From Minisyncoccota bacterium (GTDB lineage: Bacteria > Patescibacteriota > Minisyncoccia > JAHIHE01 > JAGLIN01): a stretch of DNA of 64,000 bases. The position numbers and the translations under genes are program-made. The notes below the pieces were generated by a model that searched no databases, was not told the DNA's origin, and saw only the letters and a program-made list of their open reading frames with translations. Location of the stretch: positions 27,038 to 91,037 of the forward strand of contig JBAZUT010000005.1 of the NCBI GenBank assembly GCA_041661265.1, given 5' to 3'. This document shows positions 22,758-57,886 of the stretch, piece after piece; the stretch's first letter is position 1; each line of letters starts with the position of its first letter.

Positions 22758-23402
22758 CTATTTACCGAGTTCTGCATCGATCTCTCTCTTGAAATCCTCC
22801 AATCTCGGCAAATATCTGTCGTTTTCGGAATTCACAAGAAGCCTTCCGTTAATATAGAAAGTCGGGGTTCCGACTATCCCGTCTTTATTTCCTTGCTCCG
22901 TATCTTTTTCTATCTTATCTTTGTGACTATCACTGTCAAGACAAGGATTAAAAATATCCACGTTAAGACCGATTTCCCCGGCATATTTTCTTAAGCTATC
23001 AACTCCCAGATTTCCCCGGCTTTCATAAAGAGCATTATGCATCTCTGTAAATTTTCCCTGGTCTCTTGCACATTCCGAGGCAACCGCAGCTTTCATGGCA
23101 TACTCATGGAATGGCAAGGGAAAATGCCTGTATTCCAGAAAAACCTTATCCCCGTACTCGCTTAATATCCGTTCAACAACAAAATGTTCATTGATACAGG
23201 CCGGACATTGATAGTCGCCATATTCGATTATTGCCACTTTTCCGTCCTTTTTTTCATAATCAATATTGGCATGGGAATTTGCGTCACCGCCTGTCGAGTT
23301 AAAAAAATAGAATAATGCCGCCAGGACGGATATGAACGCCAGAAGCAAGAAAATCGGATTGGAAAATAAGTTATTGAATGAATTTGCCTGTTTGTTATTC
23401 AT
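22758..23402 (-). CDS. DsbA-like thiol:disulfide oxidoreductase (thioredoxin fold), membrane-anchored
   Basis: Signal-anchor followed by CxxC (YQCPAC); overlaps lgt by 4 nt. Confidence 0.7.
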   Translation of the reverse strand: MNNKQANSFNNLFSNPIFLLLAFISVLAALFYFFNSTGGDANSHANIDYEKKDGKVAIIEYGDYQCPACINEHFVVERILSEYGDKVFLEYRHFPLPFHEYAMKAAVASECARDQGKFTEMHNALYESRGNLGVDSLRKYAGEIGLNVDIFNPCLDSDSHKDKIEKDTEQGNKDGIVGTPTFYINGRLLVNSENDRYLPRLEDFKREIDAELGK

Positions 23403-31397: not shown

Positions 31398-32234
31398 TTA
31401 TTTTCCTTTTAACTTTTTTTGTTCTTGTATTTTTCTAAAACTTAGCCTGCTGATCACTGGTTTCCCCGTTTTCACTTCAATCTGTTTTCTGGCGTTTCCT
31501 GCTATACTTCCGCCTTCACGCGCCACCTTTCTATTTTCCGGAAAAGTTTTGGGCTCCCGCTTCTTGGAAATTTCAGTGGTCGCCGTTTCTGCCAGCATGT
31601 TCAAGACCAATTCTAAATTCGTCATATTATCCCGCAAATTTTCTTTTTTCAAATCTTTATGCTTTTTATAGTCTTTTGTTTTCAATCCTGCCCAGGCAAA
31701 AGAAATATCATCGGTTAAAACAGCGAATTCATCGCTTGTTTTTACGCCCCGCTCATTCCACTCATTAGTCAGATCTTTTCTGATTTCAATGCTTTTCAGA
31801 CGCAAGTCAACCCAGTTTTTAGAATAACCCATTTTAAGATAGGTTGCCAGTGCGCGGTGAATGGCTTTTTCAGGATCCTCAGTTTCTTCGATTCTTTCAT
31901 AGCCCACCCGCGCCAGCCAAAGCTTGAACGGCTCCGCCTTCGGCGAAGGAATAGACTGAATTATCCTGAACATTGTTTCTGTATCCGCCGCATCAGTTAG
32001 ATAAAACTTGCCATCTGCAGCTTGCATTTTCAGTTGGTTACATTTTGTAACCACCTCGCTTCCTTCTTGTTTTAAGCGGTTTTTTAGCACTTTCCAATAA
32101 TTCCTCGGATCAACGCTCGCATTTAACGCATCGACTATATCCACTACCGAAAAATACCATAGTTCTTTTTCATCATCCCAAATCCGACGGATTTTCTTAC
32201 CTTCAAAAATCGCTAATTGCTTATCTTTTTTCAT
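31398..32234 (-). CDS. Bro-N domain / DNA-damage-inducible protein D (DinD)-like protein
   Basis: N-terminal LAIFEGKKIRRIWDDEKELWYFSVVDIVDAL fits the Bro-N pattern; the rest resembles DinD. The track ORF (to 32306) runs into the repeat copy; the ATG at 32234 (MKKDKQL...) is preferred. Confidence 0.5.
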   Translation of the reverse strand: MKKDKQLAIFEGKKIRRIWDDEKELWYFSVVDIVDALNASVDPRNYWKVLKNRLKQEGSEVVTKCNQLKMQAADGKFYLTDAADTETMFRIIQSIPSPKAEPFKLWLARVGYERIEETEDPEKAIHRALATYLKMGYSKNWVDLRLKSIEIRKDLTNEWNERGVKTSDEFAVLTDDISFAWAGLKTKDYKKHKDLKKENLRDNMTNLELVLNMLAETATTEISKKREPKTFPENRKVAREGGSIAGNARKQIEVKTGKPVISRLSFRKIQEQKKLKGK

Positions 32235-32285
32235 TAAATATTTTAATGATTGAATAATTTGTAACTTGTTTTTCCGTATACGCTT

Positions 32286-32378
32286 CCGCCAAATCCATTG
32301 GAGCATAGATTATCTATTTCGGAAGCGGACAAGAAAATTCATTCGTGCAATATATGGCTATTTTAAGTTTTGACATTT
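32286..32378. repeat. copy 2 of the ~93-nt direct repeat
   Basis: See copy 1. Confidence 0.7.
32314..32376 (-). pseudogene. duplicated, truncated 5' fragment of the GT4 gene (MSKLKIAIYCTNEFSCPLPK*)
   Basis: Matches MSKLRIAIYCTNEFSCPLPKEIIY... of the 30224-31303 gene and ends with an in-frame TAG. Confidence 0.6.
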
Positions 32379-32462: not shown

Positions 32463-33128
32463 TCAGATGACAAATTTCTTCTTGAATTTACATTTAGGAT
32501 AATTAGAACAACCAAAGAATTTACCAAACCTGCCATTTATCTCTCTTAGTTTGCCGCCGCATGTCGGGCAAATATCGTTTGTCTTATTTTCTACGACTTC
32601 ATCGTCTTTATTTACCAGTTTTATCAACCTGAGCAATTCATCACCATCGACCAATTCAATCTGTTTATCTTCTGCGTATTTCTCAGCCTCTGTTGTAAAG
32701 ATGTTTGTTGTTATAAAGATTCCCTTTCCTTGCGAAAGCTTATCCATCAATGTACCAACAAATTCTCTAACATTACTAACCGATACTTTCGAAGTTATAT
32801 ATTTCTTGCACTGAATGTAATGTTTTATTCCGTTTTTCGTTACGACTACATCCACTCCTCCGTCATGAGAACCACCAACTTTTTCCGTTTGATATCCAAG
32901 TCGAAAATACATGTCTGCAATATAATTTTCAAAGTCATTAGGTCGCAATTTTCTTAATTTTCCAATTAAATCCTTATCTATGGTCCACTCGTTGACTTGA
33001 TTGATTTTTTTCTCAATCTTCTTGTTTTTTAAATAACGTGGTATCCATACTTCGACAGCTATTTTCATCAATGCAATAATAATTAGCAAAACCCATACTT
33101 GCCACAGAGAAAGAAACATTGTCAACAA
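32463..33128 (-). CDS. Mrr-like restriction endonuclease domain protein with an N-terminal transmembrane helix and a C-terminal topoisomerase-type C4 zinc ribbon
   Basis: Catalytic block DVVVTKNGIKHYIQCKKY fits the Mrr/PD-(D/E)xK pattern; CPTCGGKL...CSNYPKC zinc ribbon. Confidence 0.65.
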   Translation of the reverse strand: MLTMFLSLWQVWVLLIIIALMKIAVEVWIPRYLKNKKIEKKINQVNEWTIDKDLIGKLRKLRPNDFENYIADMYFRLGYQTEKVGGSHDGGVDVVVTKNGIKHYIQCKKYITSKVSVSNVREFVGTLMDKLSQGKGIFITTNIFTTEAEKYAEDKQIELVDGDELLRLIKLVNKDDEVVENKTNDICPTCGGKLREINGRFGKFFGCSNYPKCKFKKKFVI

Positions 33129-33271: not shown

Positions 33272-34285
33272 TTACAAATAACTCACCTTCACGCTATTCA
33301 ATCTCTTTTCAATTTCGCTTCGATCCAAAATCCCATTCTGCGCGCCATATTCGCTGACCACGTTCCCGCTGTTCAAAATTCCGAATTTCAATGCATCTTC
33401 CAGTTTACCAGTGATCAGATATCCCCCAAGCATGGCCGCACCAAACGCATCTCCGGCGCCTGTCGCATCCACTCCCCGATTGTCCGTTCCCGGCGCAAAA
33501 ATAACCTGATCCCCTCCGCCATAAACATATGCGCCATTTTTTCCATCAGTTACGACCACAATTTTCGGACCCCATTTTTTCATGAATTTTGCCAGGACCG
33601 AAGGATCGTTCATCTGATTATAATCCAATTTAATGTTCTTATCTCCCTGGACCAGCTCTATTGCTTCATCCTTGTTCACGATTAGCATTTCGGTTATCCT
33701 GAAATATTCTTTCAGATTATCAGTTCCGCCGGCCAGCTGAGCTCCGCCCGGATTCCAGGCAAGCTTTATCTTGCCCTCAACCACGGCTTCCTTTATCTCA
33801 TCCAGGCTATTCTTCCACTGGTTCGCAAGAGAAGTGAGATATATCCATTTGCTTTTTCCGATCAGATTTTCTTTCTTCAGCTCAAGAAAGTCGCTTGCGC
33901 CCTTATAAACAAAGATAACCCGGTCGCCGCCTTTTTTATCCAACACGATCAAAGAGAATCCCGTTCTCCTTGCCTCATCGTTCTGGATCAATCCAGTGTC
34001 TATCCCAAGTTTTTTCAAATTATTGACTATCGCTTTTCCGTCATCATCGTTTCCCACTTTGCAGTTCACGGCGACTTTGAGCCCGAGCTTTTGGAAAGTG
34101 GCCGCTGTGTTGCAGGCTCCTCCTCCGAAATTGAATATCACCTCTTCGCTTTTTATCTTTGCGCCATATTCAAATCCCAGGATCACCTGCTCCGTCAGAT
34201 TCTCAGGAGTTTCAATGATCTTTCCCTTGTCGGTAATGAACGTTATGTCGCGAGTCGCCCCGCCGATCGTAATTATGTCGAACAT
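33272..34285 (-). CDS. PfkB-family carbohydrate kinase (ribokinase-like)
   Basis: GG motif near the N-terminus and C-terminal DATGAGDAFGAAMLGGYL. Confidence 0.8.
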   Translation of the reverse strand: MFDIITIGGATRDITFITDKGKIIETPENLTEQVILGFEYGAKIKSEEVIFNFGGGACNTAATFQKLGLKVAVNCKVGNDDDGKAIVNNLKKLGIDTGLIQNDEARRTGFSLIVLDKKGGDRVIFVYKGASDFLELKKENLIGKSKWIYLTSLANQWKNSLDEIKEAVVEGKIKLAWNPGGAQLAGGTDNLKEYFRITEMLIVNKDEAIELVQGDKNIKLDYNQMNDPSVLAKFMKKWGPKIVVVTDGKNGAYVYGGGDQVIFAPGTDNRGVDATGAGDAFGAAMLGGYLITGKLEDALKFGILNSGNVVSEYGAQNGILDRSEIEKRLNSVKVSYL

Positions 34286-34433: not shown

Positions 34434-36005
34434 TTAGGCTTTGCATCTTATCTTTTTTTCTATCAAGCTTCCAAGAACCATATCCTTGGGCTTTTCCGTG
34501 CCCAAAACATCAAGAAGCGTCGGCGCAACATTTCCAAGAACCCCGTTGTCATGCAATTTCAGGCTTTCCCTCTTCAGTCCCTTTTTTGCGATAATGAACG
34601 GAACGGGATTTTTGCTGTGCATGGTCATTATCTCTCCCGTTTTCAGATCAACCATTTCATCGGCATTGCCGTGATCCGCAGTCACTATCACCATTCCTCC
34701 GCCCTCCACGGCTTTTTCGATCACCATTGCCATGCACTTATCCAGAAATTCAACCGCGGAAATGGTCGCCTTCATGTTTCCCGTATGCCCTACCATATCG
34801 GCATTGGCATAATTAACAGCAATAAAATCATATACGCTGTATTCGATATTCGAGACAAGAACTTTCGTGATGTCCATTGCGGACATTTCCGGCTTCTGGT
34901 CATAGGAAAAAACGTTCGGAGACATGATCTGCTCCCTATCCTCTCCGCCAACCGGATCCTTATGTCCGCCATTTATAAAATATGTTATATGAGGATATTT
35001 CTCGGCTTCAGCTATATAGAGCTGTTTTTTCTCTCTCAAAACATGGGGTATGGTATTCTCCACCGATTGGGAATAATAAGCGACCTGCACAGGAAGGTCC
35101 GGACCGAAATCCGTCAGTGTACACGCAAATATATCTTTTAACTTATGAGATCTGTTCTCATAACCGATAACTTTATTCGTCACAAATAATTTCGTGAATT
35201 GCCTCGCCCTGTCCCCCCGGATATTGAAATGAATGATCGCATCATTGCTTTTTATTTTCGCAATAGGTTTGTTCTTGCTGTCTACTATTACCGTCGGAAT
35301 GATAAATTCATCCGTAAGGCCCTGTGAATAGGAATATTTTATGGCCTCTTCGGGAGATTTGCTTTTCCATCCCTCCCCCATGACCATGGCATCATAAGCT
35401 TTCTGAAGCCGCTCCCAATGTTTGACGCGGTCCATGCCATAATATCTTCCGCCTATCGTGGCGATCTTTCCTATTCCTATCTCTTCTATTTTTTCGTTCA
35501 GATCCTGCAGAAAGATCAGCGCTCTTTTCATAAAAGTATCCCTTCCGTCAGTGAAAAGATGCAGATAAACCTGCTTCACCTTCTTCGTTTTCGCCAGCCT
35601 CAAAAGAGCGTAAAGATGGTCCGGATCGCTATGAGGACTGTCTATTTCGGAAAGAAGTCCGATGAAATGAAGATTTGTTTTCTCGACTATTGCATGATTC
35701 ATAGTTCGAAGTATTCTCGGATTTTTGAAGAATTTACCCGACTCGATGTCTTCCCTGATTATCTGCGAATCCTGTTTGACGATCCTTCCCGCGCCGATGT
35801 TTATATGTCCCGCTTCGCTCCCACTCCTTTCATTCTCGGAGAGTCCCACTGCAAGACCGGTGGCATTCAGGGTCGTATAGGGATACTTTCGGACCAAGCT
35901 GTCAAAAAAAGGTTTTTTGGCAAGTTCAATCGCATTAGCCCTGCTTTTTGGCGCAACACCCCATCCATCAAGGATTATAAGAATATTTGTCGGTTTTTTT
36001 GGCAT
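34434..36005 (-). CDS. gpmI: 2,3-bisphosphoglycerate-independent phosphoglycerate mutase
   Basis: ILIILDGWGV N-terminus, ...VTADHGNAD... and overall iPGM blocks. Confidence 0.9.
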   Translation of the reverse strand: MPKKPTNILIILDGWGVAPKSRANAIELAKKPFFDSLVRKYPYTTLNATGLAVGLSENERSGSEAGHINIGAGRIVKQDSQIIREDIESGKFFKNPRILRTMNHAIVEKTNLHFIGLLSEIDSPHSDPDHLYALLRLAKTKKVKQVYLHLFTDGRDTFMKRALIFLQDLNEKIEEIGIGKIATIGGRYYGMDRVKHWERLQKAYDAMVMGEGWKSKSPEEAIKYSYSQGLTDEFIIPTVIVDSKNKPIAKIKSNDAIIHFNIRGDRARQFTKLFVTNKVIGYENRSHKLKDIFACTLTDFGPDLPVQVAYYSQSVENTIPHVLREKKQLYIAEAEKYPHITYFINGGHKDPVGGEDREQIMSPNVFSYDQKPEMSAMDITKVLVSNIEYSVYDFIAVNYANADMVGHTGNMKATISAVEFLDKCMAMVIEKAVEGGGMVIVTADHGNADEMVDLKTGEIMTMHSKNPVPFIIAKKGLKRESLKLHDNGVLGNVAPTLLDVLGTEKPKDMVLGSLIEKKIRCKA

Positions 36006-36194: not shown

Positions 36195-37469
36195 TTATGC
36201 TCCGATCTCTTCTTCTATCTTCATCAGCCTGTTGTATTTTGCAAGCCTCTCTCCCCGGGAAAGCGATCCGGCCTTCAGGAAATCCGCGCCCGTCGCAACT
36301 GCCAGGTCGGCGATGAAATGATCGCATGTTTCTCCCGATCTGTGCGAAACGATGACCTTCCAGCCTTCTTTTTTTGCAAACTTGATGCAATCGATCGTTT
36401 CCGTGAGAGTTCCTATCTGATTGAATTTTATTATTATCGCGTTTGCGCACTTGTTCTTATCCGCCTTTTTTCCCCTTTTTATATTCGTTACCGTGAGATC
36501 ATCCCCGACGATCATAATCTTTTTGTTGAATTGGTCTATCCTCTCCTTCATCCGCGCCCAGCCCTCCCAGTCATTCTCATTCAGACCATCTTCGATCGAA
36601 ATAAGCGGATATTTTTTCAGCCACTCAAGATACAGAGCGGTAAGCCTGTCGCGGTCCAAGGAAATATTCTCAGGCCTGAGCCTGTATTGGTTGTTCCCTG
36701 CTTCATAGAAGGAGCTGGATGCCGCGTCTATTCCGATAAAAATCTCTTCGCCCGGCTTGTATTTGGCGTCTTCGATCGCCTTTATGATCAACTCGAATGA
36801 TTTTGTCGTACTGTCCAACTTTGGAGAAAAACCGCCTTCGTCTCCGACTCCGGTTGATTGTCCAAGTCCTGACAGTATTTTCTTCAGCGCCTGAAAGATC
36901 TCGCTTCCGGCCCGGATCCTTTCCGGAGAACCTTTTATCCCCACGGGAAGTATCATGAATTCCTGGATCGAAAGTCCGCTATCGGCATGCTTTCCGCCAT
37001 TTATTATATTGAACATAGGGACCGGTATCCTGAAATCTTCTTCTTCAAGACCATAGGCGGATGCTATATATCTATACAGACGCTTATTTCTTGCCCTTGC
37101 TCCCGCTCTCGCACAAGCAAGAGACACTCCCAAAATGGCATTCGCACCCAGATTCGATTTATTCTCTGTTCCATCCAGATCGATCATCATCTTATCTATC
37201 TTCTTCTGGTTGGTTACGACTTGTCCCTTCAGCTTTGCCGCGATCCTGACATTAACATTCTCACAAGCTTTCAAAACACCCTTCCCGCCATATCTGGCGT
37301 TGTCCTGGTCCCGCAATTCCAATGCCTCAAATTCGCCCGTAGAAGCGCCGGATGGAACCGCCGCTATTCCCCTGACCTTGCTTTCAAGAACAACCTCAAC
37401 CTCCACTGTCGGATTTCCCCTCGAATCCAAAATTTCTCTCGCCTGGATCTTTTTGATCTTATTCGACAT
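36195..37469 (-). CDS. eno: enolase
   Basis: IQAREILDSRGNPTVEVEV N-terminus and SHRSGETCD catalytic-loop region. Confidence 0.95.
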   Translation of the reverse strand: MSNKIKKIQAREILDSRGNPTVEVEVVLESKVRGIAAVPSGASTGEFEALELRDQDNARYGGKGVLKACENVNVRIAAKLKGQVVTNQKKIDKMMIDLDGTENKSNLGANAILGVSLACARAGARARNKRLYRYIASAYGLEEEDFRIPVPMFNIINGGKHADSGLSIQEFMILPVGIKGSPERIRAGSEIFQALKKILSGLGQSTGVGDEGGFSPKLDSTTKSFELIIKAIEDAKYKPGEEIFIGIDAASSSFYEAGNNQYRLRPENISLDRDRLTALYLEWLKKYPLISIEDGLNENDWEGWARMKERIDQFNKKIMIVGDDLTVTNIKRGKKADKNKCANAIIIKFNQIGTLTETIDCIKFAKKEGWKVIVSHRSGETCDHFIADLAVATGADFLKAGSLSRGERLAKYNRLMKIEEEIGA

Positions 37470-37490: not shown

Positions 37491-38051
37491 TTAATTGCTT
37501 GATACTTTCTGAAAAGCAGATCCCTCCACCTTGAATTCATTTGAATAAAAATCAATGGCGCCGATGCAATTTTCAGGTTCCTGGCATCCATGATACACCT
37601 TCACCACGAATCTATAAACACCTTCTCCCTCCTTCTCGGGAAGAGACAAGGCGCATTTTGTAGTTTTCTTGCTGAGATTAAAACCGGATCTGTCATATCC
37701 GACATTCTCATGCCTGATCCCAAGATTGACCCACTTGCCATTGATATATTTTTCAAAATTATCGAGGTATTCGCAAGGCTGTGAATATATCGACCGGTCG
37801 GTATAGTTTTCTATGGCAAGAATTATCCTGTCTCCCATCTGATAGACGCTCTTGTCGGTCTTCACGAATATCCTGTCAACATTCTCGACAAGATAGGCAT
37901 TGTCCGTCATTCTATCTATTCTTTCATATTGTACGTAAAAAGCGGCGATAAAAACGGGAAGTATGGCCATGATAAAGAAATAGAACAGTATCTCGGCATC
38001 AAACCTTAGCCCTTTCTTGCTGTTTTTTGTTTGTTTTTTTACTTTTCTCAT
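37491..38051 (-). CDS. hypothetical membrane-anchored protein
   Basis: Transmembrane helix near the N-terminus, then a ~140-aa Cys-containing exodomain. Confidence 0.5.
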   Translation of the reverse strand: MRKVKKQTKNSKKGLRFDAEILFYFFIMAILPVFIAAFYVQYERIDRMTDNAYLVENVDRIFVKTDKSVYQMGDRIILAIENYTDRSIYSQPCEYLDNFEKYINGKWVNLGIRHENVGYDRSGFNLSKKTTKCALSLPEKEGEGVYRFVVKVYHGCQEPENCIGAIDFYSNEFKVEGSAFQKVSSN

Positions 38052-38081
38052 ATTTTTTGGCTAATAATTAAATTTTATCGA

Positions 38082-39668
38082 TCAATCCAAAATACTGATA
38101 TCTATTGCACCGATGCTTTCTTCGATCGGAAATTCTTTGGAATTCCTCATCCTTTTATACCCATAAACCTCGACATTTTTTCCGTCATATTCAACAAGGC
38201 TCTGCGGCATTGCTCCGTCTTTTATAAACCCGGAAACAACGGCATAGGCGCCCCCGTCCTGCAGATCAAGCACGACATGATAGAACTCATCCGTCTTTTC
38301 AGCTTTTAAAACGCCCTTTATCCTGGTAACCGCCTCCATTGAATATCCCGTTTCGAAAACTATTACGATCTTTTCATTGTTCCATGGATTCTTTGAATAC
38401 TTGAAAGTTCCCGTTATGTCATTTTTTTCAATATCCACCAGATCCGCAATATCAACGACCGGAATCTTTCTGTTCAATTCGGCAATGATGCTGTTCGTGT
38501 CCGGACTTCCGCTCAATACCAAATTATTCTGCGACAGATCTTCGGATGTGACTTCTCCGGCTTTTTTCACCTTTACATTTTCCGGAGGTTGAACCTGCGA
38601 GATAATGGCACGCTCTTCGCCTCCAACCATATCGCTCGTGATCATGATAATGTTCTTGTCACTATCAAGAACTTTCAATTTTTCAAAAAATACATCTACC
38701 GTTTCTCCGGGCGTGACAACTCTCTGTTTTTCATATTTTCTTTGGCTGATATTCCCGAGAGAATCTATTTTATATATACATATCGATCCTCCGATCATTT
38801 CACAGCTTCCATCCTCAATGTTTTCAAGCCTCGCAGAAAGTTCGAAACCGAACCCGCTTGAACCGTAGCCGTAATAATATTCGGGCTGATTCGGATCCGA
38901 TAAAAATTCTTCTTTCGTATATTTCAGCAAATCCAAATAAACATCTGAATTTTTGTCATTCAGTCTGATCAAACCATTGCTTTCGGGAAATTTCCGGCCA
39001 TTTTCCGGGGAATATGCCCCTAGCGCCTTCTTGATCTCAGACAGATCATCCTTTCTCTCTCTGTCATTTTCTTTTTGGACTTCGCTACGTATGAAATCAT
39101 CATAAAAATCATCAGCGATCTCAAATTCAACGGAATATGAGTTTTTCATGCCGGGATCCGTTTCGCTCCTGATATCATTCTTATTTATGATCTCATCGGA
39201 ATAATAGAACACGATCCTATACTTTCCCGGTCCGGCATAACGGCCCTCGGCACCTTCCGAATACAATTTCTGATCCCACACGCCATTAACACTTTCATTG
39301 AAACCCAAGTTCTTTATTTCAATAAAATCATAATCTTCTTTCACGATCTCGCATTTGGGATGTTTATAAACGGCACTCCAAGACCCTTCTTCTTCAAAAA
39401 AAAGATCCCACTGAAGATCATTTTTACATTTTCCCGGAGGAACAATATACCAGACAGGCCTCGTTCCCTTGTTCGTTACGATAAATTTCACCTGTTCGCC
39501 CCGAACATATACACCTTTCTCAGCTGTAATTTCCACCGCATATGCCGGCTTTTCGTCTTTCGAAAAATAATACTTTTGAAAATAAAAAACTCCCGCTGAC
39601 GCGAAGACCATGAGGATCAAAAAAATGACAAGTTTTATTTTATTTCCGCCTGCAGAAGGGATTATCAT
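38082..39668 (-). CDS. large membrane-anchored protein with an internal type IV pilin-like/pseudopilin-like domain
   Basis: N-terminal transmembrane helix; internal RERKDDLSEIKKALGAYSPENGRKFP ... ARLENIEDGSCEMIGGSICIYKID, paralogous to the 39709-40275 protein. Confidence 0.55.
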   Translation of the reverse strand: MIIPSAGGNKIKLVIFLILMVFASAGVFYFQKYYFSKDEKPAYAVEITAEKGVYVRGEQVKFIVTNKGTRPVWYIVPPGKCKNDLQWDLFFEEEGSWSAVYKHPKCEIVKEDYDFIEIKNLGFNESVNGVWDQKLYSEGAEGRYAGPGKYRIVFYYSDEIINKNDIRSETDPGMKNSYSVEFEIADDFYDDFIRSEVQKENDRERKDDLSEIKKALGAYSPENGRKFPESNGLIRLNDKNSDVYLDLLKYTKEEFLSDPNQPEYYYGYGSSGFGFELSARLENIEDGSCEMIGGSICIYKIDSLGNISQRKYEKQRVVTPGETVDVFFEKLKVLDSDKNIIMITSDMVGGEERAIISQVQPPENVKVKKAGEVTSEDLSQNNLVLSGSPDTNSIIAELNRKIPVVDIADLVDIEKNDITGTFKYSKNPWNNEKIVIVFETGYSMEAVTRIKGVLKAEKTDEFYHVVLDLQDGGAYAVVSGFIKDGAMPQSLVEYDGKNVEVYGYKRMRNSKEFPIEESIGAIDISILD

Positions 39669-39708
39669 GCTTCGTGAAAATTATTAATGGATCAAAGCAA
39701 AAAAGTCG

Positions 39709-40275
39709 CTAATTAGCGGAAGATTTGCTTATTTTATATATACAGAATCCGTCGTCAGAGATCTTGCATTCAGGGTCCTTGATATTCTCAAGCCTCGCCG
39801 TAATTTCATAACTTTTTCCGTCCGATCTGTAGAGATAAAAGAACTCCGGATCTTTCGAATCTTTCAAATTGCTCGAGTTGACATATTTTATAAGGTCCTG
39901 ATATGCAGCGGAATTTTCATCATTCAGTTTTGTTCCGCCAAGACTGACCGGATAACTGCCATTTTGCAAAAAAAACATTTCGAGCGCATTCCCTATTTGC
40001 GCGATATTTGATTTTCTCATCACGTCATCCGCCCTATAGGGCTGATTTAAATATGTGTCCTTTATGAAATTATTCTCTTCCTTTATGGGCGTTTCCGTCT
40101 TTCTAGCCGAAAACAGCTTGCTATATTCGGAATAGATTATATCCTTGCCGGCGAACAGTATCACCGCCAAAATTATCAATATTATTGTCATTACCGGCGC
40201 TTTTTTGCTTCCACCTACCGGCATATTTCCCCCTACCCCTCCATCCATATCATTTGTAGATTTTATCTCTTCCAT
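39709..40275 (-). CDS. small pilin-like protein (a transmembrane helix plus a pilin-type alpha/beta domain with a C-terminal Cys pair)
   Basis: RKSNIAQIGNALEMFFLQNGSYP follows the pilin pattern (R/K..D..I..AL..Y...NG.YP); ARLENIKDPECKISDDGFCIYKI. Confidence 0.55.
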   Translation of the reverse strand: MEEIKSTNDMDGGVGGNMPVGGSKKAPVMTIILIILAVILFAGKDIIYSEYSKLFSARKTETPIKEENNFIKDTYLNQPYRADDVMRKSNIAQIGNALEMFFLQNGSYPVSLGGTKLNDENSAAYQDLIKYVNSSNLKDSKDPEFFYLYRSDGKSYEITARLENIKDPECKISDDGFCIYKISKSSAN

Positions 40276-40293
40276 GATCCATATCGTTAATAT

Positions 40294-41454
40294 TTAATTA
40301 AGAGCTTCAATCCCCGGAAGTTTTTCCCCGGACATGAATTCCAGCATCGCACCTCCTCCGGTTGAAACATAACTTGCCTTTTCGAGATATCCGAATTTAT
40401 CCAGCGCTGTTATCGTATCCCCTCCTCCTATGATCGAATATCCTTTTGAACTTGTGATGGCCTTTGCGATCTCTTTCGTGCCTTGCGAAAAAGCATCTTT
40501 CTCGAAAAGCCCCATCGGGCCGTTCCAGATTATCATTTTGGATTCTGATATTATTTTTGCATAGAGCTCCGCCGTGTCGGGACCGATATCCAATATCCTC
40601 TCGTCACCGATCTTTCCGATGGCGGAAAGCGCCGCTGTCTTCACTTCGGAGTTGCAGATAATGACGTCTACCGGAATATGGAGCTTGGTGTTATCGAGAT
40701 CTATTTTTTTGGCCTCTTCGGGATCCATGTCTCCGAGCAGGGATTTCCCGGTATCGATGCCTTTCGCCTTCAGGATGACATTGGCCACAACCCCTCCGAC
40801 AAGGATATTATCGAATTTATCCATCAAAAATTTAATTACGGGAAGTTTCGTTTCCGCCTTTGCTCCTCCGATCACGATCGTCGCGGGTTTTTTGGGATTG
40901 TTTATCGCATCGGTCAAAATATCCACCTCTTTTTCCATCAGAAGTCCCGCATAAGAAGGCAAATATTTCGTGATCCCGTGAACAGAAGCATGCGCACGAT
41001 GCGAAGCGGAAAATGCGTCGTTCACATAGACATCTCCAAGGCTCGCCAATTCCTTCGCAAAAGCTTCGCCATTTTCCTCCTCTTCCTTATGGAATCTAAG
41101 ATTTTCAAGGAGTACGATCTCTCCCATTTTCATTTCAGCTATGGTCTCTTTCACAACATCCCCGATACAATCCGGAGTCTTTGTGATGGAAAGCCCCAAA
41201 AGCTCCGAAAGACGGTCCTGAACCGGACCAAGCCTGAACTCCTCGACAACTTTCCCGTCCGGCCTCCCAAGATGCGAAAGAAGGATTATTTTTGCGCCCT
41301 TTTTGACAAGATATTCGATCGTGGGAAGGGTCGCCCTAATCCTCCAGTCCTCGCCCTTGTCTACGACCCCGTCTTTTCCGATCGGCACATTGAAATCTAC
41401 CCGGAGAATCACTTTTTTATCTTTCAGTTTTTTGATTTCTTTTAGGGACTTCAT
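40294..41454 (-). CDS. pgk: phosphoglycerate kinase
   Basis: KVILRVDFNVP N-terminus, LLENLRFH, and C-terminal GGGA/STGGGA blocks. Confidence 0.95.
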   Translation of the reverse strand: MKSLKEIKKLKDKKVILRVDFNVPIGKDGVVDKGEDWRIRATLPTIEYLVKKGAKIILLSHLGRPDGKVVEEFRLGPVQDRLSELLGLSITKTPDCIGDVVKETIAEMKMGEIVLLENLRFHKEEEENGEAFAKELASLGDVYVNDAFSASHRAHASVHGITKYLPSYAGLLMEKEVDILTDAINNPKKPATIVIGGAKAETKLPVIKFLMDKFDNILVGGVVANVILKAKGIDTGKSLLGDMDPEEAKKIDLDNTKLHIPVDVIICNSEVKTAALSAIGKIGDERILDIGPDTAELYAKIISESKMIIWNGPMGLFEKDAFSQGTKEIAKAITSSKGYSIIGGGDTITALDKFGYLEKASYVSTGGGAMLEFMSGEKLPGIEALN

Positions 41455-41779: not shown

Positions 41780-42811
<1,032 letters not shown>

Positions 42812-42851: not shown

Positions 42852-43250
42852 TCAAGAGGGGTTTGCATTTCGAACTGCATCCCTTTTATATACTTTATTT
42901 TTTAAATCCATATAAACGCCATCGATATTTTCAATTATTTCTTTATTCGTAAATCTGATTACTGCAATTCCATATTCGGATAATTTTTGTGTTCTGGTTT
43001 TATCATAATCCTCTTGTTCGGCATGAGAATCGCCATCTATCTCAATCGCAAGCAATAGTTTCGCGCAATAAAAATCAACTATGTAGTTCAGTAAAGGTTT
43101 TTGCCGTAAAAATTTATATTTTTCAAATTGCTTGTTGCAAAGCACCTTGTACCATAGTTTCTTTTCTGCAAATGTCGGATTTTTTCTGTTTTGACGGGCT
43201 TTTTCTGTAAGCTTTTTGTCATATGAGATATGTTTTTTTGATTTGAACAT
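42852..43250 (-). CDS. DUF559 (Vsr-like endonuclease fold) protein
   Basis: FRRQ-type block (KFLRQKPLLNYIVDFYCAKLLLAIEIDGDSH) and C-terminal ...VIRFTNKEI, the DUF559 pattern. Confidence 0.7.
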   Translation of the reverse strand: MFKSKKHISYDKKLTEKARQNRKNPTFAEKKLWYKVLCNKQFEKYKFLRQKPLLNYIVDFYCAKLLLAIEIDGDSHAEQEDYDKTRTQKLSEYGIAVIRFTNKEIIENIDGVYMDLKNKVYKRDAVRNANPS

Positions 43251-43305: not shown

Positions 43306-44514
43306 CTACTCCGGTTCTGTGAATTTAAAAGTGGAGAGAATTTTATCGAAATAATCCAAAGCTAAGTCATCTCTCTTTGAGTCACGCGCTATATTATAAG
43401 AATAGTCATTATATAATCTTATATTGTATATTTTTTCACCCTCTAGGAATATATTGGGCTCCCCGTAAAATAACCCGTTTAATTCCGTAACTCTTATTCC
43501 TTGCAGTCCTTCATATTGATAACTTTCATATTTCTCCACTACAGAAAAATTACTTTTAAGCCAGCTGCTCCAATTAAAATTAATCGGCTTAGAATAGACA
43601 TCAATCTGTACCCCTATCCAGTCGTTTGTATATTTTGGATTCATCTCTCTGCCATCAGATGAAAAAAAGTCATCCGGCGCTGCTCCGCCAATCACAATCT
43701 CTCTATCACTGTTTAATAGTAAAATACCGGCGTTATTATCCGGACTATCTTTTTTACTCCAGTCTTTCGGATATTTTGCCTCAAAACCATATTCTTCATT
43801 TCTGTAAGTTTGCCAATCCAATACATCATTCTTTGCAGGCCTTATATCTAAAATCTCCCCCGTCGCAGAATCTATCATTCGGGTTTCCGTCATTCCGGAT
43901 AATCCCAGGTCTGCTTCATAGGTGATGGTTTTGTCGTCTTGCGACCATACGAAATTTCTGCCGCTGCCGCCAATGAGAAAATAGAAACTCGGCTGACTAA
44001 TGCAAGCGCGCACGGACGATATTAAACCAAAATTACTCGATTTATCGTTATTTTTACAAAATGTGTCAGAGGGTCCTTTCGACTCAAGTTTATATATTCC
44101 GATCCACGCTTGCGGGAGATCCCCCGCCAGGCATCCGCTGGAAAAAACGATTCTGTCTCCACTACTCGATAGATTAGCGCTCAGAAAACAATCTCCTGCA
44201 TATTTGGCATTCGTATCCTGGAAAGTTTCGGAATCATATGCATAACCCGAATCTTTCATATATTTATTCGAATCGTCTATTGTAAATATTGCCTGTTTTG
44301 TATCAGCACTTAAAATCGATCTCGCATCGGAAGAAATTTCGATCCCCCTTATCTCCGCAACGTCAGATGACATATTATCCGTACCGAAACTTCGGGTGAA
44401 AACATATAAAGCAACGCTTGAAACAACAATAAAGCCCGCCACCGCAGACAGTCCGAGCACAGTCTTCGCAAACATGACGAACATAGGTTCTTTCTTTGTT
44501 TTATTCTTAGCCAT
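43306..44514 (-). CDS. hypothetical membrane-anchored exported protein
   Basis: N-terminal signal-anchor followed by a 360-aa beta-rich domain. Confidence 0.5.
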   Translation of the reverse strand: MAKNKTKKEPMFVMFAKTVLGLSAVAGFIVVSSVALYVFTRSFGTDNMSSDVAEIRGIEISSDARSILSADTKQAIFTIDDSNKYMKDSGYAYDSETFQDTNAKYAGDCFLSANLSSSGDRIVFSSGCLAGDLPQAWIGIYKLESKGPSDTFCKNNDKSSNFGLISSVRACISQPSFYFLIGGSGRNFVWSQDDKTITYEADLGLSGMTETRMIDSATGEILDIRPAKNDVLDWQTYRNEEYGFEAKYPKDWSKKDSPDNNAGILLLNSDREIVIGGAAPDDFFSSDGREMNPKYTNDWIGVQIDVYSKPINFNWSSWLKSNFSVVEKYESYQYEGLQGIRVTELNGLFYGEPNIFLEGEKIYNIRLYNDYSYNIARDSKRDDLALDYFDKILSTFKFTEPE

Positions 44515-44657: not shown

Positions 44658-46229
44658 CTATCTGTCGTATCCGGAATATGACAAATTGAAGCTTTTATTT
44701 ATAAGCGGAAAATCAGGAACAACATTCCCCTTTACCGCATATGGGAATGCCGCCCAGTTCAAGAATGAAGCGTCTCTTGCCTGGACACGACTGATCTCGC
44801 CATTCCTGTCCGTTGAGACAAAATATACTATATTACCCCGCCATCCTTCGGTCACAGAAACGGAATATGAGCTATTTTTGAACTTTATTGCATCTTTTGA
44901 CCTTATTTCACCTGGAGGAAGAACATACAAAGCCTTTTTCAGGATATTCATCGAAACGTATACCTCTCTCACCTTTACCATGAATCTCGCATAAACATCC
45001 CTGGTGCTTTCCGTCGGAACGTCCACTTCGAATTTATCATATGCGGCATATGGATAATCAACTCTCACGTCAAGATCAAGCCCCATTGCTCGCGCCGCAA
45101 CGCCGCATAGATCGTGATCGATAGCGGCTTGAGCGTCCATGAATCCGGTTCCTTTCAACCGATTCATAAGAGAGTTGCTATCGAAACATATTTCCATAAC
45201 TTGCCTGAAATCCGATTCAATTGCCTCAAGGTTCGTCCGCAGCTTATTTGCGGCTTCCTCTGAAACATCTTTTTCAACTCCGCCTATTGAATTTACGCCC
45301 CTGAGGAATCTGCTTCCCGTGAGCTTTTCATTCCATTGCATGATCATCTCGCGAAGCCTTGATCCGTTTGCGCCTCCGAAGTTGAAACCCGTATCCAGCA
45401 TGATGAATCCTATGTCATTGAAATGATTTGCGAGACGCTCAAGTTCCGCATAAACCACTCTCAGATACTTTGCGCGCTCGGGAACATTGACCCCGCCTAA
45501 ATTTTCCAATGCCTGACAGAATGCAAGCGAATGGCTGAACGAGCTGTCGCCGGATACCCCCTCTGAAAGCGCAACTTTTTTCGCAAGCGGCAGCACCTCA
45601 AACAGCTTTTCGACGCCCTTATGTTTATATCCCAAAAGAGGTTCGAGGGAAATGATCTCTTCTCCCGCGACCGAAAATCTGAAATGCCCGGGCTCTATGA
45701 TCCCGGCATGGACCGGTCCGACCGGGATCTCATATATTCCCTCTCCTTCAACCTTTCTGAACTGGTGCGGCTCACCTTTGGCGTTCTCGGGCCTGGTATC
45801 CCACTTGAAATCTTTTCTGAGCGGATAAACTCCCAAGGGCCAGTTTTCATGCAAAATAACACGCTTTTGATAGTAATGATCCGTCGGAATCAGTCCGAAG
45901 AAGGTCATAATCTCCCTTTCGTACCAGCTTGATCCGTGTATTTTCACAACCAATGACGGAAATTCCTCGGTATTCTTCAAAGTTATATAAGGAACCAGGA
46001 ACATCTTTTCTTTCGGTATCCCAAAAACATAGAATATTTTGAATGCGCCGTTTTCGCTCCGTTCATCCGTCGCTGTTATGGTCATAAGCTGCAACTTCTG
46101 TTCATTGTGAAAGCCGACACAGACATTTTCAATGTCCCGAGCCGGGACTTCGAACATCAGAAGGTTATTCTGTTCTTCTGTCCTATAATTTGAAGGTATA
46201 TATTTTTTTATTATCTCTTCTTTGTTCAT
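44658..46229 (-). CDS. NuoC–NuoD fusion / [NiFe]-hydrogenase large-subunit-like protein lacking the NiFe-binding cysteines (Ehr-type)
   Basis: NuoC-like HPLRKDF motif (NWPLGVYPLRKDF), then the NuoD/HycE-like core (EIPVGPVHAGIIEPGHFRF). There are no RxCGxC (L1) or DPCxxC (L2) cysteine pairs; the protein ends ...YSGYDR. Confidence 0.7.
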   Translation of the reverse strand: MNKEEIIKKYIPSNYRTEEQNNLLMFEVPARDIENVCVGFHNEQKLQLMTITATDERSENGAFKIFYVFGIPKEKMFLVPYITLKNTEEFPSLVVKIHGSSWYEREIMTFFGLIPTDHYYQKRVILHENWPLGVYPLRKDFKWDTRPENAKGEPHQFRKVEGEGIYEIPVGPVHAGIIEPGHFRFSVAGEEIISLEPLLGYKHKGVEKLFEVLPLAKKVALSEGVSGDSSFSHSLAFCQALENLGGVNVPERAKYLRVVYAELERLANHFNDIGFIMLDTGFNFGGANGSRLREMIMQWNEKLTGSRFLRGVNSIGGVEKDVSEEAANKLRTNLEAIESDFRQVMEICFDSNSLMNRLKGTGFMDAQAAIDHDLCGVAARAMGLDLDVRVDYPYAAYDKFEVDVPTESTRDVYARFMVKVREVYVSMNILKKALYVLPPGEIRSKDAIKFKNSSYSVSVTEGWRGNIVYFVSTDRNGEISRVQARDASFLNWAAFPYAVKGNVVPDFPLINKSFNLSYSGYDR

Positions 46230-46241
46230 GTCTTTATCTCG

Positions 46242-47696
46242 TTATAAAAATAATTTAGATGCGCTCTCGATCAATCTCACGATAAAAGGCGGAAAGAATA
46301 ATCCGAAGCCCACAAGAATGACAGCGACAACCGCAAGCGGAGCTGTCGTTAGAAATCCGAATTCGCCTTTCTTTATCCCGGCAGGAACTTCCCCGAATAC
46401 CATTGATGTCGCATGCCTCAGGAAACCCACAAATACGATGATTATGCCGGCCATTGCAAGCGCGACTATTCCGGGATAACTTGATATTCCCGCGGATAAT
46501 ATATAGAATTCCGTGAAAAAGAGGCCGAATGGAGGGACTCCGGTTATCGCAAAAACCCCAAAAAGGAACAAAATACCTGTAAATGGAAGTGCGGACAAAA
46601 CCCCTCTGACATTCGATATTTTGGTTGAGCTGTATTTCAGAAAGATGTTTCCGCTGCAAAGAAAGAGCAGTGATTTTGCAAGTGAATGGAAGACCATATG
46701 AAGAAGTCCCGCCAAGACTCCCATCCCTCCGAATCCGAAACCCAAAGCTATTATGCCCATATGTTCGATCGATGAATAAGCAAGCAGGCGCTTATAGTTT
46801 ACCTGGACCAAAATGATAAAAGCTGCGATGATGATCGATACGATTCCGAAAAGAACCAGAAGTCCGCTTGAAAAATCCGAACCTATCATATTGTCAACTA
46901 CGATCTTGTTCCTCAAAATTGCAAAAAATGAAACGTTCAGTAGCACTCCGGAAAGAAGCGCGGAAAGAGGTACTGGCGCTTTGGAATGAGCATCGGGAAG
47001 CCAGGTATGCATCGGAACAAGTCCGGTCTTGGTGCCGAATCCCACCATAATGAAAATGAAAGCTACCTTTATGGCCAGCGGATCCTGGATCGCACCGATA
47101 CTTATCAGGTCTTTCCAGCTCACTATCAGCTCAGTTCCCTCAAGATGCGACGAAGACACTGCAAGCAATATTAGCGTTCCAAGAAAACCCAGAAGCAATC
47201 CGACCGAATTTATGATCAGATATTTCCATGCCGCCTCCATTGCTGATGGTTTGTTGTAAAAACTGATCAGGAACGCCGTGGACAGCGTCGTAGCTTCAAT
47301 TGCGATCCACATCAGTGCCGGATTAGAAACCATCACGGCAAAAAACATTGTAAAAATAAAAAGATTCAGAAGGATGAAGAACTGCTTGATCCTGCTGAAA
47401 CCTACTATATCCTTCTTGTTCTCTTCGTGAAGATATCCCATAGAATAGATGCCTGCCGAAAAACTGCCCACCGTGATGATAAAGATCAGCAGCGCGCTGA
47501 GCGAATCTACATAATAATATGTCGAGGAATATATTCCGCTGGCGATCGTTTGCGATATAACGCTTGCCGAAAAGAATATTTCCAGGGCCGAAGCCGCGAA
47601 CATTATATGTTTTATATATATTTTTTGCTCCCTTTTGACGAACGATACGGATATTGCCGCAAGGATGGGAACCAGAAGAAGAAATGTTAATAGCAT
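46242..47696 (-). CDS. NuoN/NuoM/HyfF-like antiporter-type membrane subunit
   Basis: 484 aa with ~14 transmembrane helices and proton-pumping antiporter-like blocks (WLPDAHSKAP). Confidence 0.7.
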   Translation of the reverse strand: MLLTFLLLVPILAAISVSFVKREQKIYIKHIMFAASALEIFFSASVISQTIASGIYSSTYYYVDSLSALLIFIITVGSFSAGIYSMGYLHEENKKDIVGFSRIKQFFILLNLFIFTMFFAVMVSNPALMWIAIEATTLSTAFLISFYNKPSAMEAAWKYLIINSVGLLLGFLGTLILLAVSSSHLEGTELIVSWKDLISIGAIQDPLAIKVAFIFIMVGFGTKTGLVPMHTWLPDAHSKAPVPLSALLSGVLLNVSFFAILRNKIVVDNMIGSDFSSGLLVLFGIVSIIIAAFIILVQVNYKRLLAYSSIEHMGIIALGFGFGGMGVLAGLLHMVFHSLAKSLLFLCSGNIFLKYSSTKISNVRGVLSALPFTGILFLFGVFAITGVPPFGLFFTEFYILSAGISSYPGIVALAMAGIIIVFVGFLRHATSMVFGEVPAGIKKGEFGFLTTAPLAVVAVILVGFGLFFPPFIVRLIESASKLFL

Positions 47697-47708
47697 AGAA
47701 GTGTATTA

Positions 47709-48365
47709 TTAATCTTTCAAATGTGTTATTTGCGTGATATTAAGAGAACCGAAATGCTTATACATCATAGAAATGAAAACCGTTGCTATTACGCTCCAAA
47801 CAAAGATATCGAAAATTATCCCCAGTTCCAGGACCAGAGTCTGTTTCAAGCCTATGATCGAAGCGAAAGAAACAATGCAATTTTCCAGCGTAAGAATGCC
47901 TATGATCTGTGATAGCGCTCCTCTTTTGTTTATTGTGAGAAAAAGCGAGGCCAATATGCCGCTGAGCGCGATCGGGATCGCACTTGAATATTCCGTAGGC
48001 ATGGATGTCAGCGATCGGAACACGGAAGAATTCGCAAGAACGACGATGAGCATGATGACTATGAGCGTCATCGGAACACTGAGATATGACGTAGTTGCAA
48101 ATTTCAACTTTTGCCTGTCGATCAATTTGAAAAAGAAGATTGGCATGATGACAACTTTGACGGCAAGCATCGCCAGGGCGCTGATGAAAAGTCCCGATGA
48201 GTTTTCCTGAAAAGAAAAGATGATCAGCATCAGGCTCACGATAAAAGATTGCGCCGCATAAATCATAACACTTGTCCTGCTTTCATTCATCAGCTGCAAA
48301 ACTATCACCGTGATAAACAGCAGAGTCTCCAGAAAATATAGCGAATTTACGATCATTTCCTGCAT
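47709..48365 (-). CDS. HyfE-like / NuoK-related small membrane subunit
   Basis: 218-aa polytopic membrane protein at the HyfE position of the module. Confidence 0.5.
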   Translation of the reverse strand: MQEMIVNSLYFLETLLFITVIVLQLMNESRTSVMIYAAQSFIVSLMLIIFSFQENSSGLFISALAMLAVKVVIMPIFFFKLIDRQKLKFATTSYLSVPMTLIVIMLIVVLANSSVFRSLTSMPTEYSSAIPIALSGILASLFLTINKRGALSQIIGILTLENCIVSFASIIGLKQTLVLELGIIFDIFVWSVIATVFISMMYKHFGSLNITQITHLKD

Positions 48366-48369
48366 AATT

Positions 48370-49302: not shown

Positions 49303-49306
49303 AATT

Positions 49307-51361: not shown

Positions 51362-51363
51362 AG

Positions 51364-52496: not shown

Positions 52497-52612
52497 AAAG
52501 GTCAGTTAGTTCATATGATTGCATTTTATCACTTTCAAGGAAGCATATCAATTTTGGCGAATCCCGATTTTTGTGTTATAATTGCTTTATATTAACCAAA
52601 TCGTTACCGACC

Positions 52613-53590: not shown

Positions 53591-53608
53591 TAAGAAAATC
53601 AAAATAGC

Positions 53609-57869: not shown

Positions 57870-57886
57870 GTTATCACGAAACAATA

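Follow-up and report, generated by a model that had tools for sequence, protein, structure and literature searches.

Why are two proteins that resemble pilins encoded in the middle of a run of glycolysis genes? The question is raised by a 64,000-nucleotide stretch of contig JBAZUT010000005.1 from a Minisyncoccota bacterium (the window; all positions are counted from its first letter). In this stretch, a trio of minus-strand open reading frames (ORFs) encoding proteins of 188, 528 and 186 amino acids lies between pgk upstream and eno downstream. The answer proposed here, which is held with moderate confidence, is that the trio encodes lineage-conserved, tethered and non-polymerising surface modules, in two of which the head domain of pilins was co-opted. 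The genes of the trio and the parts of their products are the following.

39709..40275, minus strand: gene of the 188-amino-acid protein, composed of a 27-residue cytoplasmic tail, an anchor helix, a spacer of ~32 residues and a C-terminal T2SSG-like head; eight homologues, with a conserved start
40138..40194, minus strand: anchor helix of the 188-amino-acid protein (residues ~28-46), from a hydropathy scan and AlphaFold2 (AF2); the juxtamembrane motif (G/N)KD.I.S.Y.KLF comes next
39724..40050, minus strand: pilin head of the 188-amino-acid protein (residues 76-184), from alignments, Pfam and AF2, with predicted local distance difference test (pLDDT) scores of 74-93 over residues 81-188
38082..39668, minus strand: gene of the 528-amino-acid protein, composed of an anchor, an immunoglobulin (Ig)-like sandwich, a head, and a C-terminal alpha/beta plus beta module; fourteen homologues; AF2 mean pLDDT 79.8
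39576..39641, minus strand: anchor helix of the 528-amino-acid protein (residues ~10-31), with basic residues before it and a YFSK/FKDYF motif after it
39105..39536, minus strand: Ig-like beta-sandwich of the 528-amino-acid protein (residues 45-188), from AF2 strands and Foldseek
38760..39098, minus strand: pilin head of the 528-amino-acid protein (residues 191-303), from BLASTP, alignments, profiles, AF2 and Pfam
38085..38741, minus strand: C-terminal module of the 528-amino-acid protein (residues 310-528), from AF2, with an alpha/beta part (324-412) and a beta part (417-526)
37491..38051, minus strand: gene of the 186-amino-acid protein, composed of a Lys-rich tail, an anchor helix and a beta-rich ectodomain
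37935-37991, minus strand: transmembrane (TM) helix of the 186-amino-acid protein (residues ~21-39), from hydropathy and alignment; DAEILFYFxIMAILPVF is nearly invariant

Are the two larger proteins related to each other, and are they related to pilins? Residues 68-182 of the 188-amino-acid protein were aligned by BLASTP with residues 186-301 of the 528-amino-acid protein at 39% identity (E 2e-23). A profile-profile comparison of the small and large families gave a probability of 99.9% and an E-value of 1.7e-34 over 116 columns. The preliminary description of this DNA had proposed an adjacent pair of paralogous pilin-like proteins and a pairwise alignment of their heads as a check. The shared domain of 116 residues is far beyond chance and, together with the T2SSG match given below, bears the proposal out. 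In both proteins, D..RK..L..I..ALE.Y...NG.YP is the first motif of the head and SARLEN..D..C.......C.Y the last. Across the family alignments of the 8 small-protein and 14 large-protein homologues, the two Cys and most motif positions never vary, so that the pilin hallmark and the C-terminal ARLEN...C segment noted earlier in both proteins are upheld at their core positions. The domain is closed by an invariant Cys-x7-Cys loop, formed by Cys170 and Cys178 in the 188-amino-acid protein and by Cys289 and Cys297 in the 528-amino-acid protein, in whose family most of the invariant columns fall in the head. By our own comparison, this putative C-terminal disulfide loop recalls the D-region of pilins.

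The link to pilins was supported by Pfam. The 188-amino-acid protein matches T2SSG (PF08334) with 25.0 bits (E 2e-5), above the curated gathering threshold of 21. The 528-amino-acid protein itself scores 17.6 bits, below that threshold, and T2SSG matches 13 of the 14 members of its family (best E 1.2e-7). When the profile of the 188 family was compared with PDB sequences, only GspG/EpsG matches were returned (E 0.5-1). From the T2SSG matches, the pilin resemblance is true homology to the GspG/pilin head, limited to the head portion.

The predicted structures were also considered. In the AF2 models of both proteins, the secondary structure of the head consists of one long helix and a four-stranded sheet (pLDDT 74-93). 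In the 188-amino-acid protein, an alpha1C-like helix (79-105) is followed by strands at residues 111-116, 148-151, 155-162 and 178-185; in the 528-amino-acid protein, the helix spans residues 191-222 and the strands residues 266-270, 275-281, 290-292 and 296-302. A Foldseek search of the PDB with the 188-amino-acid model ranked pilins first (E 0.23-1.5 for the top pilins). The best of these, the gonococcal pilin 1ay2, was not significant at E 0.23, and 5vxx and the XcpG pseudopilus model followed at E about 1. Since no match in the PDB was significant, the assignment of the pilin fold anticipated in the preliminary description leans on sequence homology and on the helix and sheet topology predicted by AF2.

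How old is the pair? The heads of the small and big types fall into separate clades, with identities of 62% and 56% within the clades and 44% between them. The duplication of the head is therefore ancient, older than the divergence of these genomes. A juxtamembrane motif (FKD.IF / NKD.I.S.Y.KLF / KDYFSK) was also seen directly after the anchor (40100-40140 and 39560-39580, minus strand); it is common to both families and is also present in P0034, P0037, P0043 and P0048. Because this motif is common to both families and to remoter relatives, the whole anchor-plus-head unit, beyond the head alone, may be ancestral.

If the heads are those of pilins, are the proteins pilins? Type 4 prepilins have been described as "invariably" having a class III signal, in which a hydrophilic leader ending in Gly or Ala is followed by 20-25 hydrophobic residues that form alpha1N (PMC10191384). 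Alpha1N, often with Glu5, is continuous with alpha1C, and the resulting helix has ~50 residues (PMC10191384). The earlier view of this locus was that neither protein has a canonical prepilin leader and that a TM helix stands in its place, and both parts of that view hold. A motif of the type G-[FMLIV]-[TS]-L-[IL]-E is absent from all six frames of the window, as judged with a regular expression that recognises the N-termini of PilA, GspG and ComGC. Pfam N_methyl (IPR012902) gave no match in the 188- and 528-amino-acid proteins even at E<=1. Hydrophobic helices are found instead at residues ~28-46, 10-31 and 21-39 of the 188-, 528- and 186-amino-acid proteins, respectively. The alignments of the 188 and 528 families contain no conserved Gly or Ala at the helix boundary (position -1) and no conserved acidic residue (Glu5) early in the hydrophobic helix, and the only semi-conserved Gly of the 528 family precedes Lys/Arg. 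A single alpha1 of ~50 residues was not predicted by AF2 in either protein. In the 188-amino-acid protein, a helix (26-53) and low-confidence residues (47-67) are followed by the separate helix 79-105, and the gap between TM helix and domain is 22-49 residues in small-type relatives. In the 528-amino-acid protein, an Ig-like domain of 145 residues intervenes, and the helix of the head starts immediately past it. Two other explanations were considered and rejected. Mis-called starts that conceal a leader do not apply to the trio, in which all three ORFs are already the longest possible and the 188-amino-acid protein starts 18 nucleotides past the pgk stop; pseudogenes or an artefact do not agree with orthologues at 35-90% identity that have invariant motifs.

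The label "type II secretion system protein GspG" is given to the 188-amino-acid protein by NCBI, and the 528-amino-acid protein is labelled "hypothetical". The GspG label is an over-annotation, because the 188-amino-acid protein reaches 19.1 bits with the GspG equivalog model TIGR01710 (NCBIfam), whose cut-off is 88.85; this model does not match the 528-amino-acid protein. No genes for PilB/GspE, PilC/GspF, PilD or a type II secretion system were recognised among the ORFs of the window, of which 20 that could not be identified by eye were scanned with Pfam and the others were named from their N-terminal sequences. Pilus machinery genes were likewise absent from the ~9 kb past the end of the window, where a DUF87/TraG-like ATPase is encoded, and from five syntenic loci.

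Could the two proteins nonetheless be genuine pseudopilins or type IV (minor) pilins that have diverged strongly, are still processed by a prepilin peptidase and are built into the pilus encoded by most bacteria of the candidate phyla radiation (CPR)? The homology of the head to GspG/pilin heads and the NCBI label would agree with this, as would the wide occurrence of type IV pili and many pilins in CPR (PMC6744442) and the observation that Glu5 is not obligatory in every pilin (PMC10191384). We consider it very unlikely. A conserved -1 Gly/Ala, Glu5 and N_methyl are all missing, basic residues follow the semi-conserved Gly of the 528 family, and a continuous alpha1 stick cannot be reconciled with a spacer of ~32-45 residues or an Ig-like domain of ~150 residues. 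This head is also found behind polytopic domains, in tandem and at the C-terminus of proteins of 500-890 amino acids, while the TIGR01710 score is far from its cut-off (19.1 vs. 88.85) and no pilus genes lie nearby. Since the class III signal and the contiguous alpha1N stick were tested for and are absent, the 188- and 528-amino-acid proteins should not be classed with pilins, with pseudopilins or under GspG.

A related explanation is that the heads are partners that dock on separate, stick-only pilins, in the manner of PilA-N and PilA-C of Geobacter. A split of stick and head is known from the Geobacter pilin (cited in PMC10191384), and a "Geopilin domain 1 protein" (7tgg) was among the weak matches of the PDB profile search (E 0.56). 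This match is not significant, the heads keep their own alpha1C and leave nothing for a stick to supply, and they stay tethered by a TM helix. With no short gene for a stick-only pilin in the cassette or the window, this explanation is given the lowest weight of all those considered.

How, then, are the heads held at the cell? In most homologues, the hydropathy scan placed basic residues on the N-terminal flank of the anchor helices, and because of these flanks the anchors are indicated to be oriented N-in/C-out. A different outcome would be expected if the hydrophobic segments were cleavable Sec (type I) signal peptides and the proteins were released in soluble or wall-associated form. An A-S-A-G sequence within the hydrophobic segment of the 528-amino-acid protein and a hydrophobic core of ~15 residues ending in F-A-G in the 188-amino-acid protein would fit such cleavage, and three wider relatives with lipoprotein-type signals indicate that the mode of export varies in the family. 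Release is judged unlikely on the following grounds: the AxA-like positions vary from one orthologue to another, the hydrophobic stretches have 17-25 residues and the AF2 helices ~28, and the nearly invariant helix of the 186 family suggests a retained, functional TM segment. In addition, the tail of 25-40 residues before the helix of the 188 family, which reaches up to ~100 residues in relatives, is atypical for type I signals.

What else does the 528-amino-acid protein carry? Its pilin-like domain is internal, as first described: residues 191-303 are preceded by the Ig-like domain and followed by a C-terminal module of 220 amino acids. The Ig-like region (41-190) was modelled with pLDDT values of 75-93 in blocks of ten residues, with one block at 65. 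A Foldseek search of the PDB with the whole model returned GH3 beta-glucosidases, BsuPI (3isy) and AlkC at E 5e-5 to 2e-4. No query range was given by Foldseek, and these matches were assigned to residues 45-188 from their alignments of ~150 columns. We take the beta-sandwich domains of the GH3, BsuPI and AlkC entries to be the matched part. By this structural criterion, residues 45-188 are predicted to form an Ig-like beta-sandwich. The pilin-like and C-terminal parts never surfaced in the searches of PDB and BFVD with the whole model, and the BFVD list was uninformative.

The C-terminal module contains the motif NNLVL.G.P.(S/T)N in its alpha/beta subdomain (324-412). It was matched by Pfam S_layer_C (PF05124) at 16-17 bits, below the cut-off of 23.9, and in 5 of the 14 family members at E<=0.1 (best 1e-3). 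This was its only Pfam match, and its profile found nothing among PDB sequences at E<=10. Other proteins (P0040, P0042, P0044 and P0045) have the module by itself, preceded by a TM helix and by acidic repeats rich in Asp.

This match raises the question of whether the proteins serve as an envelope or S-layer-type scaffold or lattice anchor and not as adhesins, which would refine the reading of tethered surface modules and not replace it. The recurrence of the sub-threshold S_layer_C match (5 of 14 members, best E 1e-3) points in this direction. So does the location of the genes in a housekeeping operon, which would suit high constitutive expression. The nearly invariant TM helix of the 186-amino-acid protein agrees as well, and so do the modules that the 528-amino-acid protein may share with each of its neighbours, since such sharing would favour homotypic contacts. 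On the other side, none of the S_layer_C scores reaches the curated cut-off, the profile search of PDB sequences was empty, and half of the orthologous loci do without the Ig-like module. The scaffold is for these reasons considered quite unlikely.

The 186-amino-acid protein may connect to the same set of modules. Its family profile was aligned by hhalign over 37 columns with the first part of the Ig-like domain in the 528 family (probability 72.6%, E 3e-5); an extended, colinear alignment of 122 columns had an E-value of 6e-4 and a probability of 28%, and BLASTP between the 186-amino-acid ectodomain and the Ig-like domain gave E 0.9. It is possible that the ectodomain shares the Ig-like module with the 528-amino-acid protein. 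If this match is real, the 528-amino-acid protein shares one module with each of its neighbours, and a hetero-complex of the three proteins is plausible because of this sharing. The anchor of the 186-amino-acid protein and the preceding "DAE" are almost invariant across 11 homologues (including F23, M28, P32 and F34). This conservation exceeds the needs of a passive anchor and suggests that the helix makes a specific intramembrane contact.

Four Cys of the 186-amino-acid ectodomain (C93, C133, C156 and C162) are also invariant. Putative disulfides in the ectodomains of the trio are supported by the invariance of the Cys pairs and by a gene for a DsbA-like enzyme in the window:

22758..23402, minus strand: membrane-anchored DsbA-like thiol-disulfide oxidoreductase (Pfam Thioredoxin_4 3e-21, DSBA 9e-18)

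This enzyme is a candidate catalyst of the ectodomain disulfides and would be an accessory encoded outside the cassette. Such thiol oxidoreductases are enriched in CPR and have been proposed to act in the folding of CPR pilins (PMC6744442). The start of the DsbA-like gene overlaps the end of an upstream ORF (23399-24160, minus strand) with an Lgt-like N-terminus.

Is the cassette specific to this genome? The order pgk, small gene, big gene, third gene, eno was found in five other assemblies (L001, L002/L007, L003/L004, L005 and L008), whose named records are Patescibacteria group bacterium or Minisyncoccia bacterium. The contig scan used narrow back-translated patterns and returned 4 loci. Compared with the window, the proteins of the trio are 35-70% identical and those of the flanking enzymes (gap, pgk, eno and gpmI) 65-95%; in related loci, pgk is 65-83% and eno 70-73% identical. 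Surface proteins that are exposed are expected to change faster than the enzymes encoded beside them. The trio stays in place and evolves faster than its flanks, as expected of such proteins.

The cassette has also been rearranged. In three of the six loci, the Ig-like domain is missing from the big protein; the orthologues that lack it are P0012, P0013, P0014 and P0033-P0036. In one locus (L005:4702-5931), the small gene is missing, and a protein of 409 amino acids (P0012) carries a small-type anchor and spacer joined to the C-terminal part of the big protein. The head of P0012 is mixed, with a small-like first part that becomes big-like from "SARLEN" onward. P0012 looks like a natural fusion, in which the paralogous heads would have recombined and the intervening sequence been deleted, and it suggests that one anchor unit can be exchanged for another. 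Outside the clade, a protein with an Ig-like domain and a head is encoded in an unrelated neighbourhood (L009).

How widespread is the leaderless head? When the large-family profile was run with HMMER against the full set of 1.84 billion cluster representatives, 1339 of them matched at E<=1e-3 and 307 at E<=1e-10. The larger number also counts matches to domains other than the head, and its weak end may contain some true pilins. Besides ~20 full-length relatives, nearly all of the best 150 hits match the head domain only. Architectures were assigned in a sample of 144 representatives outside both families, 137 of which have the domain, as follows.

58 of 137: one or two TM helices, a spacer of at most 70 residues, then the head
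54 of 137: one or two TM helices, followed by an unrelated ectodomain of greater length and the head
14 of 137: at least three TM helices in front of the head (polytopic)
11 of 137: no TM helix before the head, many of these being probably truncated ORFs

In overlapping counts among the 137, the domain stands at the extreme C-terminus in 104, the Cys pair is kept in 70 and tandem copies occur in 7. A lipoprotein-type signal (lipobox) was found in three, and an N-terminal prepilin motif in none of these best non-family hits with a head. When 102 wider relatives were scanned with Pfam, T2SSG matched 48 at E<=1e-3 and N_methyl matched none. The leaderless pilin head is thus a very large family and more than a local oddity, a point that the preliminary description did not make. 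In a small sample, all source-named members were from Patescibacteria and were labelled "hypothetical" or "GspG". Among the literature on CPR or T2SSG, no account of leaderless, membrane-tethered pilin heads was found, in a search whose coverage was incomplete and which leaves novelty unproven.

Several individual relatives and neighbours are of note. P0015 (600 amino acids, L010), P0065, P0068 and P0069 are polytopic proteins with 6-7 TM helices that end in one or two leaderless heads; P0015 comes from the same genome as the L008 cassette. Pfam GPDPase_memb was matched by three of the 102 scanned relatives, the members not being specified. In the window, a membrane protein of 402 amino acids (43306-44514, minus strand) has a C-terminal domain whose start and end motifs, W.TYRNE.YG.E.KYP and DKILSTF.F.E, recur in P0063. 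Two short segments of these proteins align by BLASTP at E 1e-6 and 0.02, and in P0063 the module follows a leaderless head. The 402-amino-acid protein also has a weak Pfam match to PsbP_2. Its likeness to P0063 is a further sign of module shuffling among these surface proteins.

Why would such genes be kept among glycolysis genes? The region is entirely on the minus strand, and the order of transcription is gap, pgk, the 188-, 528- and 186-amino-acid genes, eno, gpmI and a gene for a PfkB-type kinase. The glycolysis genes are located as follows.

41780-42784, minus strand: gap
40294-41454, minus strand: pgk, the upstream flank, with its stop codon 18 nucleotides before the start of the 188-amino-acid gene; orthologous genes match Pfam PGK
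36195-37469, minus strand: eno, the downstream flank, which starts 21 nucleotides past the stop of the 186-amino-acid gene; orthologous genes match Pfam Enolase
34434-36005, minus strand: gpmI
33272-34285, minus strand: PfkB-type kinase

The preliminary description had stated that the inserted genes split a glycolytic gene string. This is confirmed by the pgk and eno flanks and by the placement that is kept in five other assemblies. The gaps from pgk through the three genes to eno are 18, 40, 30 and 21 nucleotides. No terminator-like sites were found in the gaps of the trio, where the scan for promoters and terminators was uninformative, and G+C content and skew across the trio are continuous with those of the flanking DNA. 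Because the gaps are short and contain no terminator-like sites, the trio is probably co-transcribed with the glycolysis genes. On the assumption that the glycolysis genes are constitutive, expression of the trio would be constitutive as well.

Small genes of nuclease or mobile type are dispersed among the glycolysis genes. Those recognised are listed here.

42852-43250, minus strand: DUF559 endonuclease-like
32463-33128, minus strand: Mrr_cat with a Zn ribbon
31398-32306, minus strand: Bro-N
57339-57884, minus strand: IS200-type Y1 transposase

Other genes of the window were noted in passing. A Complex-I/Mrp-like membrane module (44658-51900, minus strand) has counterparts in L001 that are annotated by Pfam as Proton_antipo_M, NADHdh and Complex1_30kDa/49kDa. 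Beside it and divergent from it (52571-57186, plus strand) are genes that, by eye, look like those for the small and large subunits of a NiFe-hydrogenase and for HypA. A membrane-anchored protein of 293 amino acids (28532-29413, minus strand) has tandem "SLKSEPEKPEAD" repeats and no Pfam match. In a protein of 532 amino acids (9044-10642, minus strand), the N-terminus is extremely rich in Lys and Arg; this protein also has a region that resembles a coiled coil and a lytic transglycosylase domain (SLT_2, E 1.6e-8). A small membrane protein of 123 amino acids (27006-27377, minus strand) scores 22.4 bits with Pfam T4SS_pilin, below the cut-off of 26.6. An ENA contig with the same trxB (30.7 kb; L006:1480-4820) encodes a DUF87/TraG-like ATPase and a DUF8128 protein past the end of the window. 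Together with the T4SS_pilin-like protein, these two may belong to a conjugation or type IV secretion system of the Patescibacteria type.

How could the observations on the trio be combined? In the proposed explanation, Sec would insert the three proteins as type II (signal-anchor) bitopic membrane proteins in this clade of Paceibacterota/Patescibacteria. The pilin head would have been uncoupled from the class III signal and alpha1N and hung on a signal-anchor, by way of either a flexible spacer of ~32 residues or the Ig-like domain. A DsbA-like enzyme would form the disulfides of the ectodomains outside the cell, and the ectodomains would be displayed on short tethers, on or through a thin envelope. 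Lacking a prepilin peptidase site, Glu5 and a continuous alpha1, the heads would be unable to enter a type IV filament. Their most probable roles would be to bind a partner, whether a ligand on a host surface, a ligand or polymer of the envelope, or each other, and to take part in a small hetero-complex of the 188-, 528- and 186-amino-acid proteins. The data show the structure of the genes, the homology, the lack of a prepilin signal, the signals of topology, the conservation and synteny, and the breadth of the domain family; from these features and the models given above, we infer the export route, the disulfides, the surface display, the binding role, the formation of a complex and the co-transcription.

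Several points weigh against this explanation. The calls of topology and signal were made with a crude hydropathy scan and AF2. The fold of the head was assigned from sequence homology and secondary-structure topology, with E 0.23 as the best result of Foldseek. The basis for co-transcription is limited to the shortness of the gaps and their freedom from terminators. Finally, some type 4 pilins lack Glu5 and their leader peptides are variable (PMC10191384), so that a highly divergent signal is conceivable.

A wider proposal goes beyond the trio. The pilin head in Patescibacteria would be a general-purpose, non-polymerising module of about a thousand clusters (at 50% identity), forming a separate class of receptors or adhesins independent of the pilus machinery. 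In one clade of Paceibacterota, the trio between pgk and eno would be a hetero-oligomeric complex whose expression is wired to central carbon metabolism, for example by coupling attachment to a host or substrate with the fermentation of sugars. This proposal is offered tentatively, as a doubtful extension that nevertheless has some chance of being right.

What would follow if the trio encodes tethered, non-polymerising surface modules? Type IV pilins are defined by the class III signal and alpha1N, and their heads are usually too divergent to be recognised. The reverse is seen here: a conserved head can be recognised, and the N-terminus that defines a pilin is missing. If the explanation is true, many proteins of Patescibacteria that were automatically annotated as "GspG" or "pilin" would not be filament subunits, and counts of CPR pilins would be inflated. 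The pilin head would also fold and work without a filament, which bears on the evolution and recombination of pilin modules. To our knowledge, almost nothing has been established experimentally about host attachment or the envelope in Paceibacteria. The proteins of the trio would be conserved and probably highly expressed surface candidates for either, and the link to glycolysis genes provides a handle for transcript and proteome studies.

How do these proteins compare with known systems? One likeness is to the outer domain of the archaeal S-layer-like family (S_layer_C, PF05124), where the match is weak, recurrent in 5 of 14 members and below the cut-off, and lies over the NNLVL.G.P..N segment. 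With BsuPI (3isy) and the C-terminal domain of GH3 enzymes, the Ig-like domain of the 528-amino-acid protein shares a general likeness of fold and no match to a sequence family, and no function as an inhibitor or glycosidase is implied. In the split Geobacter pilin, the head reportedly has no alpha1C of its own and is partnered by a stick-only pilin whose gene lies next to it. PilA-N and PilA-C of Geobacter are a precedent for a head encoded without a hydrophobic stick (PMC10191384); in contrast, the heads of the trio keep alpha1C, are anchored by a TM helix and have no stick-only neighbour. The likeness to GspG and type IV pilin heads (PF08334) is one of homology, which extends from the alpha1C motif through the DP..P.YYY.Y.SDG..(F/Y)EL strands, and includes a predicted long helix on an antiparallel sheet of about four strands. 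The heads of the trio differ from GspG and pilins in having no class III signal, N_methyl, Glu5, continuous alpha1N or neighbouring machinery. Modular type 4 pilins, such as PilB and PilC of Streptococcus sanguinis, also have a pilin module joined to unrelated domains by "cut and paste" (PMC8179133; PMC10191384). In these pilins, the pilin module is N-terminal, the class III signal is kept and the grafted domain is carried into the filament. In the trio and its relatives, by contrast, it is the pilin head that has been grafted, without its signal and at the C-terminus in 104 of the 137 relatives.

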